A DNA stretch of 20,000 nt from an uncultured virus (IMG/VR IMGVR_UViG_2061766007_000957) (Duplodnaviria > Heunggongvirae > Uroviricota > Caudoviricetes): positions 44,585 through 64,584 of the IMG/VR virus record IMGVR_UViG_2061766007_000957. The stretch is one strand, 5' to 3'. The position numbers were made by a program, and so were the translations under genes. The notes beneath the pieces were generated by a model. That model saw only the letters and a program-made list of their open reading frames with translations. It did not search any database and was not told the DNA's origin. Below, in pieces: positions 1,440 through 11,125 of this stretch. Each line of letters begins with the position of its first letter. Position 1 is the first letter of the stretch.

Positions 1440-1513
1440 TCGGGAGTATGGGATTCGAACCCATCGTCTTCGGCTTATAAGGCCGCTGCATTCACCTGCT
1501 ATGCTAACTCCCA
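1440..1513 (-). tRNA. tRNA-Ile, anticodon UAU; CCA not encoded
   Basis: Cloverleaf: acceptor TGGGAGT/ACTCCCG plus discriminator A; D stem GCAT/ATGC; anticodon arm GCGGC-CT TAT AA-GCCGA; T arm ATGGG-TTCGAAT-CCCAT. Anticodon at 1477-1479. Confidence 0.9.
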
Positions 1514-3394: not shown

Positions 3395-3559
3395 TTATTT
3401 TGTATTTTGCAGGGCTTCAAGAATCTGCTTAGTAATATACGAATTTGTAGATCCGGAACGCATGACAATTTTTATCTTACTAAGATCCGCTCCGGATTTT
3501 CTTAACTTTCTACATATGGCATCAAACCTCATCAATAAATCCCTATCTTGTTCTTTCAT
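3395..3559 (-). CDS. Small hypothetical protein (54 aa)
   Basis: Start MKEQDRDLL overlaps the primase stop (ATGA), with RBS GGAGA; a better start than the track's 3598. Confidence 0.7.
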   Translation of the reverse strand: MKEQDRDLLMRFDAICRKLRKSGADLSKIKIVMRSGSTNSYITKQILEALQNTK

Positions 3560-4500
3560 AGCACTTTCTCCAATCTTTTTAATTCTTCCCCGGTACATTC
3601 ATTTGCATCTTTACGTCCACCGGGCAGCAAGTATTCAAATATCAATTTATTTGTAACATTCTTTTTAATTCGCTGGCGAGCCTGCATCCCTGCTTTATCC
3701 ATATCGGTACAAAGGATCAGTTCCCTGCATGGCAACTCTCTAAGCTGCTTGTATTGCAACTCCGTCCCAAGACCATTCAGCGCCACCGCACATCTTTTAA
3801 TTGTCCAGAATGATAATGCGTCAAGCATTGATTCGCATACAATGACTGCTGACGGGAATACTCTTTGTTGATATAATTCGAAAAGTCCGTAGAGTGGCTT
3901 TTCGGCTTCTTTCGGATAATTAAAATACTTAGTATCAACAGACCGACGGGCAACAAATAATGTGCCACCAGATTTATCCCGTACAGGAAAAGTAATGCAG
4001 CGAGTATCTTTATCATACCCAATATCAAACTCCTCAATAACTTCATCTGTTAACCCCCTCTCATACATGTATGGATGATAGTATCTATAGTGCTCTAATA
4101 TTTCTTCTGGAACATAAGTTATTTGTTTTTCTTGTGTCTTGCCTCTGCTGAGCTGCAATTCGATCGGCTTTCGATCCTCGACCTGAATAGTTGCATAATT
4201 TTTCAGTAACCACTTCCATCCAAAAGATCCAACCTGATCATTGATATATCCAAAGCAATATGAAATGACTTCATTAAGTTCGTGGATCTCCCCACATGCA
4301 AAACAATGAAATTTGCCATCGCTTTTTCTAATCCCAGCACTAGGTCTTCGTTCATTGTGATATGGACAGCATACCATGATATCATTCCCGATATCTTTTA
4401 TCTTATCAAATTTTTGCAAGCCTTGCGTAGCCAGCTGCGCATCGATCTCCATCAATATATCATTCAGGCTTGCATTAAATTCTACGCCATTGATTTTCAT
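3556..4500 (-). CDS. dnaG: DNA primase (CHC2 zinc finger + TOPRIM)
   Basis: CCPYHNERRPS...FHCFAC zinc finger; ITFPVRD, VCESMLDALS, LCTDMDKAG and KDANE TOPRIM motifs. Confidence 0.95.
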   Translation of the reverse strand: MKINGVEFNASLNDILMEIDAQLATQGLQKFDKIKDIGNDIMVCCPYHNERRPSAGIRKSDGKFHCFACGEIHELNEVISYCFGYINDQVGSFGWKWLLKNYATIQVEDRKPIELQLSRGKTQEKQITYVPEEILEHYRYYHPYMYERGLTDEVIEEFDIGYDKDTRCITFPVRDKSGGTLFVARRSVDTKYFNYPKEAEKPLYGLFELYQQRVFPSAVIVCESMLDALSFWTIKRCAVALNGLGTELQYKQLRELPCRELILCTDMDKAGMQARQRIKKNVTNKLIFEYLLPGGRKDANECTGEELKRLEKVL

Positions 4501-5783
4501 TAGAAAACATCCTCGTTGCTTTCTTCTTTTTCTTTTGGCTTTCTTTCCCTGCGCCTTATCGGTTCATCATTATTCAGAACAGTTGGTATAAACTCACCAA
4601 TATTAGCATTCCATGTATAAGCAATCTTTCCACCAACTCCTCCGTTCCTTTGCTTCTTAACCTGAATGATCAAAGTATTGTCTTTTTGCTTTAATGAAAT
4701 AATCTTGCTGGCATTGTAACTAATACCATCGCTGTCCCTGATATTTTCCAACTCAGGGAGATCATCTGTATTCTTATCAGTAATGCCGCCCCGGTTTGCT
4801 TGTACAACTGCCAGTACCGGAACTCCGACTTCCATTGATAGGCTCATAAGATCCTCAGCTATGTTTGTCAGAGAAGTGGTTTTATTATCGTTTCTGCGAC
4901 CCCGCTCATCACTTAAATATGTTATGCCATCAATGGCTATAATATCAAGATGATTTTGCTTTATCCAGTTCCGTAACTTTGTTACAGTTATTTGCCTATT
5001 GAAGTCATTGGGGGTAGCAACTAAAAATTGATTTTCCTTAGTAAGCAGATCATCTATATAAGTCCGGTATTCATCTTCTGCGATGTTATTATTACCCCAC
5101 ATAAGACCTTTATTATCAAAATTCTTATACAAAGTATCAAACCTATATCCGATACTGCTGGCTCCCATTTCCGGACTAATATAGCCAACATTAAATCCGA
5201 TCTCCCATATATGAGAACATATTTTTTCAAGCAGCCATGACTTACCTTGATTTGTTCTTGCAAAGATCACAAATAATTCTTCTCTTCGCTGAATCCCATG
5301 AATTAGATCATCAAGCTCCGGTAACCCAGTTGTAAAGAACCATTCTTTTTGATGATCCCTTCTTTCAACAAATTCATCATATCGCTGCTTTGCCTGCGAT
5401 ATAATATCAATTCCTCCCAGCTTATAAGAAGGTTGTAATTCTTTTGTGGCCTGCAACATGTATTCAGCAGCTGCATTAGCATCCGTCTGTAACAGATCAG
5501 CAATCTTCTGAACAATGGGAACTGATTTTTGAAATAAATATTCTTCCCGAATTGTTTCCACCAAATAACGATCACTTTCGGTAACCTCAACCAATTCTAT
5601 ATTATCAAACTTACTTAGAAAGGTCGCTTTGTCAGGAGTGTTGCCGTACTGCTTATAATGATCCAATATGAAATTGTATTCGTCTTCGTATTCTATGAAA
5701 TACTCTTGGGTAAGTTGATTGTTTTCGATAATATCTATGCTGCCAGTTTGAAGGCATTTTGAAAGAATCTGGAGTGCAACCAT
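4500..5783 (-). CDS. dnaB: Replicative DnaB-like (SF4) helicase
   Basis: TGLPELDD, Walker A FARTNQGKS, ISPEM, IAIDGITYL, VVQANR and IRDSDGI...KKQRNG motifs. Confidence 0.95.
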   Translation of the reverse strand: MVALQILSKCLQTGSIDIIENNQLTQEYFIEYEDEYNFILDHYKQYGNTPDKATFLSKFDNIELVEVTESDRYLVETIREEYLFQKSVPIVQKIADLLQTDANAAAEYMLQATKELQPSYKLGGIDIISQAKQRYDEFVERRDHQKEWFFTTGLPELDDLIHGIQRREELFVIFARTNQGKSWLLEKICSHIWEIGFNVGYISPEMGASSIGYRFDTLYKNFDNKGLMWGNNNIAEDEYRTYIDDLLTKENQFLVATPNDFNRQITVTKLRNWIKQNHLDIIAIDGITYLSDERGRRNDNKTTSLTNIAEDLMSLSMEVGVPVLAVVQANRGGITDKNTDDLPELENIRDSDGISYNASKIISLKQKDNTLIIQVKKQRNGGVGGKIAYTWNANIGEFIPTVLNNDEPIRRRERKPKEKEESNEDVF

Positions 5784-6439
5784 TATCTCATATCCTCACT
5801 TTTCAATTCTATTATCTCACTGCAATTGTATACCCTGCTTACCAACCGGCTACCAATATGCTCTGTTAATTCTTCAACAGAAGTATAATTGCTTGTAAAT
5901 ATGTTGGATCGGTTTGCCTGCTGCCTTGCATTGATATAAACAAGCAGCTGAGTGTAATCATATTCACTTACTTTACCCGCTCCTATATCATCCCATATGA
6001 CGAGCGGGGTTTTCTTTACGTTTTCCAAATAACTATTAGATAATGGGTTGTCAAAATGCTTTAACGAGGTTAAAAATTCCGGAACATATATAAACAATCC
6101 CAGCGGCTCAACAGGACCCCATACATCCCATTCTAATTCAAACAGCTTATACATGATCTTGATCGCCCAGCTTGTTTTTCCATTACCAGTATATTTGCTG
6201 CATATGTAAAGATTACTTCCATCTTCAACAAACCCATCCACAGTATCCTTTATCTCTTTCAGGCGAAGAAATTGTTTGAGATCTTTCCCATCGCAATCCA
6301 AATTGATGGGATGATGTAAATTCTCCGGAACACCAGATAAATTCATTAAGGCTTTAATAACCGGATATTTTACGCAAGTATTACAATCTTTATCGCATAC
6401 CTTTTTATACCAGCAATCAGAAATGGTATACGCGTTCAT
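5783..6439 (-). CDS. DnaC/IstB-like AAA+ helicase loader
   Basis: N-terminal Cys cluster, Walker A TGNGKTS, Walker B VIWDDIG, IFTSN and SRLVSRV...EDMR; lies between initiator and helicase. Confidence 0.9.
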   Translation of the reverse strand: MNAYTISDCWYKKVCDKDCNTCVKYPVIKALMNLSGVPENLHHPINLDCDGKDLKQFLRLKEIKDTVDGFVEDGSNLYICSKYTGNGKTSWAIKIMYKLFELEWDVWGPVEPLGLFIYVPEFLTSLKHFDNPLSNSYLENVKKTPLVIWDDIGAGKVSEYDYTQLLVYINARQQANRSNIFTSNYTSVEELTEHIGSRLVSRVYNCSEIIELKSEDMR

Positions 6440-7199
6440 TTTTATCCTCCTTTGTAGCTCTTGGTGCAGATGCTAACCCATCTATGGATTTCTTTTTGCC
6501 ATTATATTTTCCCTCTAAGATACTGAGAAATTTATCCTCCCTAAAAATGAAATCAAAATCTGCAACCCAGCCTCTGTCATTTTTTCCGGTTAAAAAATCA
6601 GATGCATTTGCTTTATCAAATACCTGGATTATTTCGTCCAGCGAATACTTTTTAAGGATAGCCCGGATAGCCTTTTTCCTTTTTTCTGATAATTGCCTTG
6701 CTTTTGGTAATTTGTTACATCGATCATTGTACAATTCCAATACCCGATTTTCGCCCTTATCCCCTTTATCCCTTTCTATATCTATATCTTTTTTTACTTC
6801 TATAAGCCCTTTACTGCTTAATGGCTTATTAAGACTATTATCTAGATTATCTATATGGCTTATATTATTGGTGAACCTTAGGTGCATACCATGAACCTTA
6901 GGTGCATACCCCCCATGAACCTTAGGTGCATAGTATGCAACATAGGTTACTCCATTTATAATTAATTGTTCTTTTGTAATAAGATTGCGGGAAATAAGAT
7001 TCTTCAGATTTTTTTGAATGCCCTGCTTTGTAGCTCCACACCAATCGGCTAAATATTGCAGGCTGCCAGTAAACTTTTGGTTTTCGATTTGACTGAATCC
7101 ATATATAGTGGCGTATACAAGTAAATCATTACCGGTCAATCCCAGCTCCGTTCTCATCCATCCTTGTATTTCTAAGAAATTGGTTTCCTGTACTTGCAT
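6417..7199 (-). CDS. Phage replication initiator / replisome organizer (N-terminal wHTH)
   Basis: Start MQVQETNF at 7199 with RBS GGAGG; IQGWMRTELGLTGNDLLVYATIYGFSQ...SLQYLADWCG HTH; C-terminal FLTGKNDRGWVADFDF...ILEGKY domain; internal iterons. Confidence 0.88.
   Translation of the reverse strand: MQVQETNFLEIQGWMRTELGLTGNDLLVYATIYGFSQIENQKFTGSLQYLADWCGATKQGIQKNLKNLISRNLITKEQLIINGVTYVAYYAPKVHGGYAPKVHGMHLRFTNNISHIDNLDNSLNKPLSSKGLIEVKKDIDIERDKGDKGENRVLELYNDRCNKLPKARQLSEKRKKAIRAILKKYSLDEIIQVFDKANASDFLTGKNDRGWVADFDFIFREDKFLSILEGKYNGKKKSIDGLASAPRATKEDKNERVYHF
6872..6950. repeat. Iteron array (probable replication origin) inside the initiator gene
   Basis: TGAACCTTAGGTGCATA occurs three times exactly (6872, 6892, 6916), plus a degenerate inverted copy at 6934-6950 (12/17 match); AT-rich tract at about 6775-6870. 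Confidence 0.85.
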
Positions 7200-7218
7200 G
7201 CCGTCCTCCGATAAAACC

Positions 7219-7318
7219 GGGCTTGCATAAATGCAAATGCGGTTACATTTATGCAAGCCCTTCTGTAGCTTTCGTTATAAGGTTTCTTGTTGCAAGAGTT
7301 CCGCATAACTCCAGCTAC
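7219..7318 (-). promoter_or_regulatory. Structured 5' leader of the initiator gene (attenuator/kissing-loop element)
   Basis: 18-bp hairpin at 7219-7260 (one G-U pair in the minus sense) and a multibranch element at 7265-7318 with complementary loops. Confidence 0.65.
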
Positions 7319-7349
7319 CTTTTTAATGAACCATGCAGCTCACAATTCT

Positions 7350-7377
7350 ATAATACTCATTGACATATATAAGTCAA
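7350..7377 (-). promoter_or_regulatory. Putative sigmaA promoter for the replication operon
   Basis: TTGACT-16 bp-TATTAT; the -35 box is part of a palindrome TTGAC-N8-GTCAA. Confidence 0.5.
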
Positions 7378-11027: not shown

Positions 11028-11064
11028 TCGTAAATATTATACGATATATTTATGGTAAATACAA
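11028..11064 (-). promoter_or_regulatory. sigmaA-type early promoter with the same 18-bp operator as 3355-3372
   Basis: TTGTAT (11059-11064), 17-bp spacer, TATAAT (11036-11041); ATCGTATAATATTTACGA is identical to the other copy. Confidence 0.8.
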
Positions 11065-11066
11065 CC

Positions 11067-11108
11067 AAAAAATAAAAATAGCAGATTTCCGTAGAAACCC
11101 ACTATTTT
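11067..11108 (-). terminator. Rho-independent terminator closing the cassette
   Basis: Stem AAAATAGTGGGTTTC / GAAATCTGCTATTTT with a C(UACG)G tetraloop, followed by a U-rich tail. Confidence 0.85.
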
Positions 11109-11125
11109 CAATAATTTGATGGCAT

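Follow-up and report, generated by a model that had tools for sequence, protein, structure and literature searches.

The stretch of DNA analysed here (20,000 nucleotides, referred to as the window) forms the end of a 64,584-bp virus record that is 96% complete. Its minus strand carries an operon of replication genes (initiator, helicase loader, helicase and primase), and the leader that is the subject of this work (7343-7211, minus strand; Table 1) lies between a sigma-A-like promoter and this operon, in the 184-bp gap upstream of the initiator gene. The downstream gene had been predicted to encode a replication initiator, and the domain scan bears this out (HTH_36, lambda-O-like); the iteron-like repeats within it are presumably the origin, by analogy with lambda O. 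No match to a tyrosine or serine integrase, ParA or an HTH_3 repressor was found anywhere in the phage record. Elsewhere in the window there is a tRNA-Ile (1440-1513, minus strand) with the anticodon UAU, which is rare in bacteria and reads AUA directly, and the replication region starts at a 17-bp terminator (11075-11115, minus strand) followed by a TATAAT box and two small hairpins (11040-11050, minus strand). Outside the window, between head genes (G000:C1:11760-11860, minus strand), a strong promoter is combined with a U-tract and a 16-bp hairpin whose loop (UUGCGCAA region) is self-complementary, making a possible small RNA of ~100 nt or a homodimerising attenuator. The N-termini of ORFs beside a DNA polymerase (G000:C1:39223-43678), compared by eye, resemble what we take to be QueC and related base-modification genes.

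Table 1. Features of the replication operon and its leader, in window coordinates.
Feature	Position	Strand	Basis or remark
Sigma-A-type promoter, TTGACT-16-TATTAT	7350-7377	minus	10/12 consensus match
P0, small 5' hairpin, variable across the family	7326-7343	minus	5' hairpins vary in size in several homologs
Arm a, 5' strand common to early and late helix	7307-7318	minus
L1, AUGCGG, loop of the early hairpin, buried by the late fold	7301-7306	minus
a', nearer partner of arm a, forming the early metastable hairpin (-9.5 kcal/mol)	7289-7300	minus	folding prediction
a'', more distant partner, pairing with arm a and with L1 in the late fold (-19.4 kcal/mol); proposed anti-antiterminator	7265-7282	minus	folding prediction
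Putative antiterminator hairpin, -3.7 kcal/mol; AAGCU (7271-7267) with GGCUU (7259-7255, terminator base)	7255-7271	minus
P2, 18-bp terminator-type hairpin with one U-G pair	7219-7260	minus
L2, CCGCAU, loop of the terminator and exact complement of L1; fully exposed once the leader is complete	7237-7242	minus
U-tract, GGUUUUAU, weak in the window	7211-7218	minus
Shine-Dalgarno GGAGG, outside the hairpins	7205-7209	minus	unpaired probability 0.7
Replication initiator, 260 aa, HTH_36; lambda-O-like / replisome organizer	6417-7199	minus	domain scan
Iteron-like direct repeats (three to four) within the initiator gene, family D1	6872-6947
DnaC-like helicase loader	5783-6439	minus	domain scan
DnaB-like helicase	4500-5783	minus
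DnaG-type primase	3556-4500	minus

The structural elements described in the original prediction are present on the minus strand: the hairpin GAGUU (7311-7307), AUGCGG (7306-7301), AACUC (7300-7296), its enclosing stem GUAGCU (7318-7313) / AGCUAC (7270-7265), the 18-bp hairpin (7260-7219) whose loop CCGCAU (7242-7237) is the exact complement of AUGCGG, and, further 3', GGUUUUAU (7218-7211) and GGAGG (7209-7205), with the AUG of the initiator at 7199. The pairing of GUUAUG (7309-7304) with UAUAAC (7279-7274), which had been taken for an alternative that would hide the first loop, also exists; it is not a minor alternative, however, and is instead the minimum-energy fold. Transcription would start at about 7343, judging from the position of the promoter, and the resulting 133-nt leader folds at -53.4 kcal/mol (z -6.7), with none of 200 shuffles as good. 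An Rfam search with the whole window returned only a tRNA and nothing at the leader, and searches with 8 homologous loci gave no match, C4, isrK and guanidine-IV included. Among 28 strong hairpins of the phage's own genome, a single one, P2 of the leader, has such a complement of its loop upstream. Overlapping the -35 box of the leader promoter is an 18-bp palindrome, TTGAC-N8-GTCAA (7360-7377), which is single-copy in the genome and is a possible operator or divergent promoter.

Relatives of the initiator are encoded at 252 gathered loci, which yielded 189 distinct upstream regions (the window included) once short and >90% identical regions had been dropped. A strong hairpin ending at most 60 nt from the start codon is present in 89 of these, and it is on these 89, leaving out the other 100, that loops were tested, without conditioning on the match. 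A Watson-Crick complement of the loop of at least 7 nt is found upstream at 39 of the 89 loci, versus 4.3 expected when loops are swapped among loci; for a complement of at least 6 nt the count is 64, and because 16.7 of 89 are then expected by chance, a 6-nt match by itself is weak. The kiss filter kept 58 loci, of which 42 have the layout of the window (type A), 12 have a second layout (type B) and 4 are of other kinds. Type A leaders, of which three (L126, L157, L247) are doubtful, thus precede 42 of the 189 related initiators; they form 32 clusters at 70% identity with a median pairwise identity of 46% and contain 31 different L1 sequences in the 32 clusters, and pairing of at least 6 nt between loops of different members occurs in 4.5% of cases. 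Loop-loop complementarity is therefore kept with different letters, as the covariation check proposed originally was meant to reveal, and since related phages keep the design while its letters change, the leader is confirmed, at the level of comparative sequence analysis, as a real RNA switch with covarying loop-loop pairing. A tandem DNA operator, suggested by a short palindrome in each arm of P2, was dropped because homologs keep the pairing and not the letters.

With a covariance model built from 8 leaders, 100 sources yielded 23 matches, of which 22 lie where a sense-strand leader is expected, and 98 further sources yielded 7, of which 6 are leaders; the model also added a close relative (L108) with another perfect pair, GGGCAG/CUGCCC. 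In 180 kb of related phage DNA the combined rule of kiss plus early hairpin selected 6 of 151 hairpins, 5 of which are known leaders, and one known leader was missed. A further model (R2) gave no matches in 151 genomes of one family but also missed a known instance, which makes this result uninformative, and in DNA pattern scans 4 of 10 and 39 of 113 matches were real, the rest being due to chance. In a separate family of 26 sequences found by DNA pattern, pairing is nearly complete in the early helix (100%), the kiss (99.4%), the late helix (100%) and the terminator (98.5%), and both sides of a pair have changed at 2 of 9, 4 of 7, 2 of 10 and 7 of 15 pairs, respectively, counts that are not independent events because the 26 sequences are related. 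Agreement with helix pairing is looser in the clade of the window than in this family. Kissing loops are 3-4 times as diverse as stems within two close temperate sub-families, and in the clade of the window they are not more variable (0.28 vs 0.41 for stems). Where the starts of the initiators are at least 94% identical, 4 of 5 pairs of loci differ in the loop, the pairs having been pre-selected to differ upstream. One natural variant (L301) has an A-C mismatch in the kissing helix.

The predicted folding of the leader changes as the transcript grows. Arm a pairs with a', directly behind L1, and then with a'', ~20 nt further on; L1 has a mean unpaired probability of 0.86 at +12 nt and of only 0.35 at +40 nt. 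Such an early-to-late switch is predicted in 39 of 42 type A loci, versus 21% after shuffling of the distal segment. The late fold gains -11.6 kcal/mol and only -3.2 kcal/mol when L1 is kept unpaired (30 clusters), so that it seems to exist largely to bury L1; a correlation of this gain with kiss strength (rho 0.59; 0.46) was rejected as an artefact because forcing L1 to stay unpaired lowers rho to 0.12. In the early helix 20% of the pairs are G-U, and in 31 of 32 clusters the sense strand gives the more stable version of this helix, which identifies the transcript (minus strand) as the folding strand. The barrier of the direct path from early to late fold has a median of 7.8 kcal/mol (8.0 in the window) and corresponds, with an assumed prefactor of 1e5-1e6 per second, to an early-fold lifetime of 2-20 s (3-32 s in the window), an estimate good to an order of magnitude, although some homologs refold fast (0.1-1 s in L006). 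The decision window, from completion of a'' to exit of L2, is 0.55-1.4 s, likewise to an order of magnitude, and the probability that the early fold survives it ranges from 0.49 to 0.97 depending on assumptions; refolding would thus be slower than the decision. In the finished RNA, L2 is predicted to be more exposed than L1 in 30 of 32 clusters (0.99 vs 0.34), and the finished leader of the window leaves L2 fully open and has 5 of 6 bases of L1 in pairs.

P2 has the form of an intrinsic terminator, in line with the attenuator that had been proposed: a U-tract (at least 4 U in 8 nt) lies 3' of it in 28 of 32 clusters, its tail being weak in the window. The base of the terminator 5' arm pairs with a'' at a mean of -2.2 kcal/mol, versus -1.0 in cross and shuffle controls (permutation p 5e-5), and this pairing is clear in 14 of 30 clusters, the window among them; pairing of a'' with the upper terminator arm gave no signal. 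Where present, the a'' hairpin has 4-9 bp, versus 15-18 bp for the terminator. A sense promoter of at least 10 bits precedes the leader in 14 of 32 clusters, versus 0.8% of shuffles, as scored with a sigma-70 matrix. These comparisons support all four helices and the way they exclude one another, along with the strand assignment, the promoter and the form of the terminator.

The 12 type B loci, of which about 10 are convincing (L050, L052, L055, L063, L083, L111, L128, L159, L235, L245), have a short-range layout in which a complement of 9-16 nt at the very 5' end is tied to the foot of an 18-29-bp stem. They keep the loop complement and have no timer; the recognition word is present twice in L111 and L128, and L142 carries a 16-nt variant. 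Their geometry should also free L2 after termination.

The leader is not bound to one initiator. In a pattern-defined family of 39 loci, in which downstream genes were typed by scanning 9 representatives, the gene behind it is an initiator of one of 7 sequence types at 37 loci and a homing endonuclease at 2, and identical leaders stand before different initiators, which argues against feedback by the initiator protein. GIY-YIG endonucleases occupy the first position in L333 and L353, and in the L265-L375 family the cassettes that are exchanged follow a conserved second Shine-Dalgarno/ATG, from which the initiator gains an N-terminal extension of 12-13 aa. Carriers include both integrase-free and temperate phages: a tyrosine or serine integrase was found in 6 of the 20 type A records searched and none in the other 14. 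A link of type A leaders to a lytic lifestyle (tyrosine integrase in 1 of 20 versus 10 of 23) was weakened when serine recombinases were added (either integrase, 6 of 20 versus 14 of 23). In one temperate member that was inspected, a normal cI/cro pair lies 4.5 kb upstream, and no operator common to the cI/cro region and the leader promoter was evident in 2 temperate genomes. The leader is absent from a syntenic 60-kb circular element of Eubacterium eligens and from 5 named phage records and is therefore optional. The annotation of the former (NC_012782.1, L386/L392), a 'plasmid' of strain ATCC 27750, lists a full phage gene set together with a recombinase and, beside a tail gene, a reverse transcriptase; the element shows the replication synteny of the window without the leader.

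The switch probably sets how often the replication genes are read. The reading that we prefer, held tentatively and at somewhat less than even confidence, is that of a transcription attenuator run as a folding race, in which the terminated leader is its own trans-acting inhibitor. As the sequence comparisons support, arm a pairs first with a', showing L1, and can later be captured by a'', burying L1. If refolding takes seconds, L1 would usually meet L2 as the latter leaves the polymerase; the kiss would lock the early fold, would make it harder for the terminator to close, much as happens in guanidine-IV riboswitches, and would leave a'' free to hold the terminator base, so that the replication operon would be transcribed. 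It is this likeness to guanidine-IV that points to the kiss as the cause of read-through. Transcripts that have refolded in time, or whose L1 is occupied, would terminate, and the released RNA of ~130 nt would relax to the late fold, in which L1 is buried and L2 accessible. In the least certain steps, which are modelled on the P4 CI RNA, the L2 of accumulated leaders would bind the L1 of nascent leaders with the same letters and block their internal kiss, and the outcome would be negative feedback on the replication genes and possibly exclusion of phages with the same loop type. Copy-number control of a phage initiator, as originally proposed, is a plausible candidate role.

The preferred reading is favoured by the loop covariation, by the early-to-late switch and by a sense promoter unaccompanied by an antisense one, and its action in trans by a late fold that seems built to hide L1 while L2 stays open; and by a loop diversity 3-4 times that of stems in two sub-families, with type B reaching the same end. 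Against it stand the loops of the window's clade, which are not more variable than stems, the plus strand, which also folds and shows a complementary loop, and the fact that a kiss in trans, which would likewise lock the early fold, could have an activating effect. An internal promoter that is on by default is moreover awkward in temperate carriers, with no cI/cro operator shared in the 2 genomes. The attenuator itself is weakened by the poor U-tract of the window and by an antiterminator pairing in only 14 of 30 clusters, and the early-fold linker is long (~25-35 nt), so that a complete 18-bp terminator may tolerate the kiss and need not be blocked.

The strongest rival, which we regard as unlikely yet deserving of weight, retains the same race and has nothing act in trans: polymerase speed or pausing would set read-through, and the replication genes would track the growth state of the host or stay at a fixed low level. 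All of the structural evidence fits such a purely cis-acting kinetic attenuator, and so do the estimates of refolding time and decision window, which lie within about one order of magnitude of each other, and the loops of the window's clade, which are not hypervariable. The phage genome, moreover, contains no match of at least 13 nt to the leader elsewhere, i.e. no separate complementary RNA. This rival does not account for type B leaders, which have no timer and still keep the complement, or for a loop turnover that exceeds stem turnover in the two temperate sub-families.

Improbable by comparison is activation in trans, a delay or multiplicity sensor in which the late fold wins by default until leader RNA has accumulated; by kissing the L1 of nascent transcripts this RNA would hold them in the early fold, and a'' would become available as antiterminator. 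Engagement of L1 does remove most of the late-fold gain, the pairing of a'' with the terminator base is real, and some homologs, such as L006, refold fast; but the a'' hairpin is missing in half of the clusters and elsewhere is short against the terminator, the scheme is unworkable through L2 in type B, and it would turn on replication in lysogens of temperate carriers.

The original prediction named an antisense RNA as a possible regulator, in the manner of pT181 and pIP501; a plus-strand countertranscript would bind L1 and force termination. We consider this quite improbable. The plus strand of the window does fold (-42.7 kcal/mol, z -4.9) and displays CCGCAU, stems are mostly Watson-Crick, and the plus-strand T run that had been read as a terminator is indeed present after the stem (7321-7326); it is, however, no feature of the family, since an antisense U-tract (at least 5 A in 8 nt before the stem) occurs in 9 of 31. 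No antisense promoter of at least 10 bits was found in any of 32 clusters in the three search regions tested, with a matrix that weak or non-sigma-A promoters could escape, versus 14 with a sense promoter, and the early hairpin favours the sense strand in 31 of 32. A U-turn (YUNR) recognition loop is a feature of ColIb-P9 rep control, and YUNR is not enriched in the loops (L1 8 of 32, L2 4 of 32, versus 40% in shuffled loops).

Very improbable is stabilisation of the kissed form by a protein or small ligand, whether riboswitch-like or as protein-gated antitermination; the topology resembles that of guanidine-IV and the clade of the window has a conserved ACCUYAUAA stretch, but 31 loops in 32 clusters at 46% median identity, a best loop position conserved in just 22 of 30, and a freely swapped downstream gene all speak against it. 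Translational or RNase-processing control in place of termination, by a ColIb-P9-like pseudoknot (raised originally as a precedent) or an RNase III-cut long stem, is the least probable of all: it would suit the weak U-tract of the window and the position of P2, whose end is 12-34 nt short of the start codon in most clusters, but the Shine-Dalgarno lies 3' of and outside P2 (median unpaired probability 0.61 across clusters) and is not stem-sequestered as in ColIb-P9, no conserved leader peptide was found (a leader ORF with a Shine-Dalgarno exists in 2 of 32), and U-tracts are oriented 3' of P2 in 28 of 32. The IncI system, to which ColIb-P9 repZ belongs, acts on translation and depends both on a leader peptide and on an antisense RNA; none of these three features was found for the leader.

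The leader can be set beside four known kinds of RNA control. In the guanidine-IV (mepA / GGAM-1) riboswitch, found mostly in Firmicutes, the loop of one hairpin forms a kiss with that of a long intrinsic terminator, and the kiss leads to read-through within a short co-transcriptional window (PMC11611296, PMC7736828). Covariation indicates that the same kind of kissing loop, between the first-hairpin loop and the terminator loop, is present in the leader; unlike guanidine-IV, which has them in its ligand pocket, the leader has no conserved loop nucleotides, has no Rfam match, undergoes an additional early-to-late refold that buries L1, and precedes phage replication genes and not transporters. 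The CI RNA of satellite phage P4 with seqA is likewise made from a constitutive promoter as a terminated leader before replication genes, and its inhibitor, like the one proposed for the leader, derives from the same transcript as the target (PMC10111431). The predicted structure of the finished leader would fit a trans-acting RNA of the P4 CI type; the leader differs in having no C4/isrK Rfam match and no nested eta/kil reading frame that could be found, and in that its intrinsic hairpin terminates and itself carries the recognition loop, and trans action, which was shown for P4 (PMC10111431), is for the leader a proposal drawn from the likeness. As in pT181 and pIP501, a terminator lies just before the rep start and an initiator would be under sequence-specific RNA control; the pre-emptor that pairs with the terminator 5' arm in those plasmids (PMC5703833) has a possible counterpart in just 14 of 30 clusters, the window among them, but no countertranscript promoter was detected for the leader, and its partner loop lies within the terminator on the same strand. 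With rep control in the IncI complex (ColIb-P9 repZ pseudoknot, Inc RNA/RNAI; PMC10724649) it would share an intramolecular loop pairing that turns rep on, that can be out-competed by an RNA with the same letters and whose specificity groups differ by few loop bases. Each of these families has a defining trait that the leader lacks. In its working the leader would resemble a guanidine-IV antiterminator built into attenuation of the pT181 type, to which a P4-like inhibitor may be added.

The leader family is uncatalogued. A literature search that covered few subscription papers returned no description of this leader type, and look-ups for the early-to-late refold and the trans-inhibitor model found nothing. 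One entry of Fremin and Kyrpides (2023), DNAVirus_3182 (102 nt, 58 sequences, Caudovirales of Clostridiales), lies within 25 bp of HTH_36 genes in 18 cases; it is listed without a function and was scored as having no terminator, and the main text does not contain the word 'kissing' (PMC10690425). To judge from its table description, this entry may overlap the leader family, and the bulk supplements of PMC10690425 and PMC8040213 may hold the family as an unnamed candidate.

If the preferred reading, feedback by the terminated leader, is extended to the whole family, a claim that we put forward more tentatively still, this would be a widespread phage leader in which one transcript of ~130 nt is target, timer and inhibitor together. 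It would be born as a receptor with L1 shown, would decide termination by its internal kiss, and would refold within seconds to an inhibitor with L2 shown; the loop letters would define specificity groups independent of the initiator protein, and both feedback on replication and exclusion of the same type would be achieved without a ligand, a protein, an antisense promoter or a processing step. That RNA can control replication initiators is textbook knowledge for plasmids and for satellite P4, and to our knowledge such control has hardly been described for tailed phages of Clostridia-like hosts. The leader survives swaps of the initiator gene, and if the proposal is true, it would add a layer of phage-phage incompatibility and provide a natural set of about 30 largely orthogonal RNA switches.
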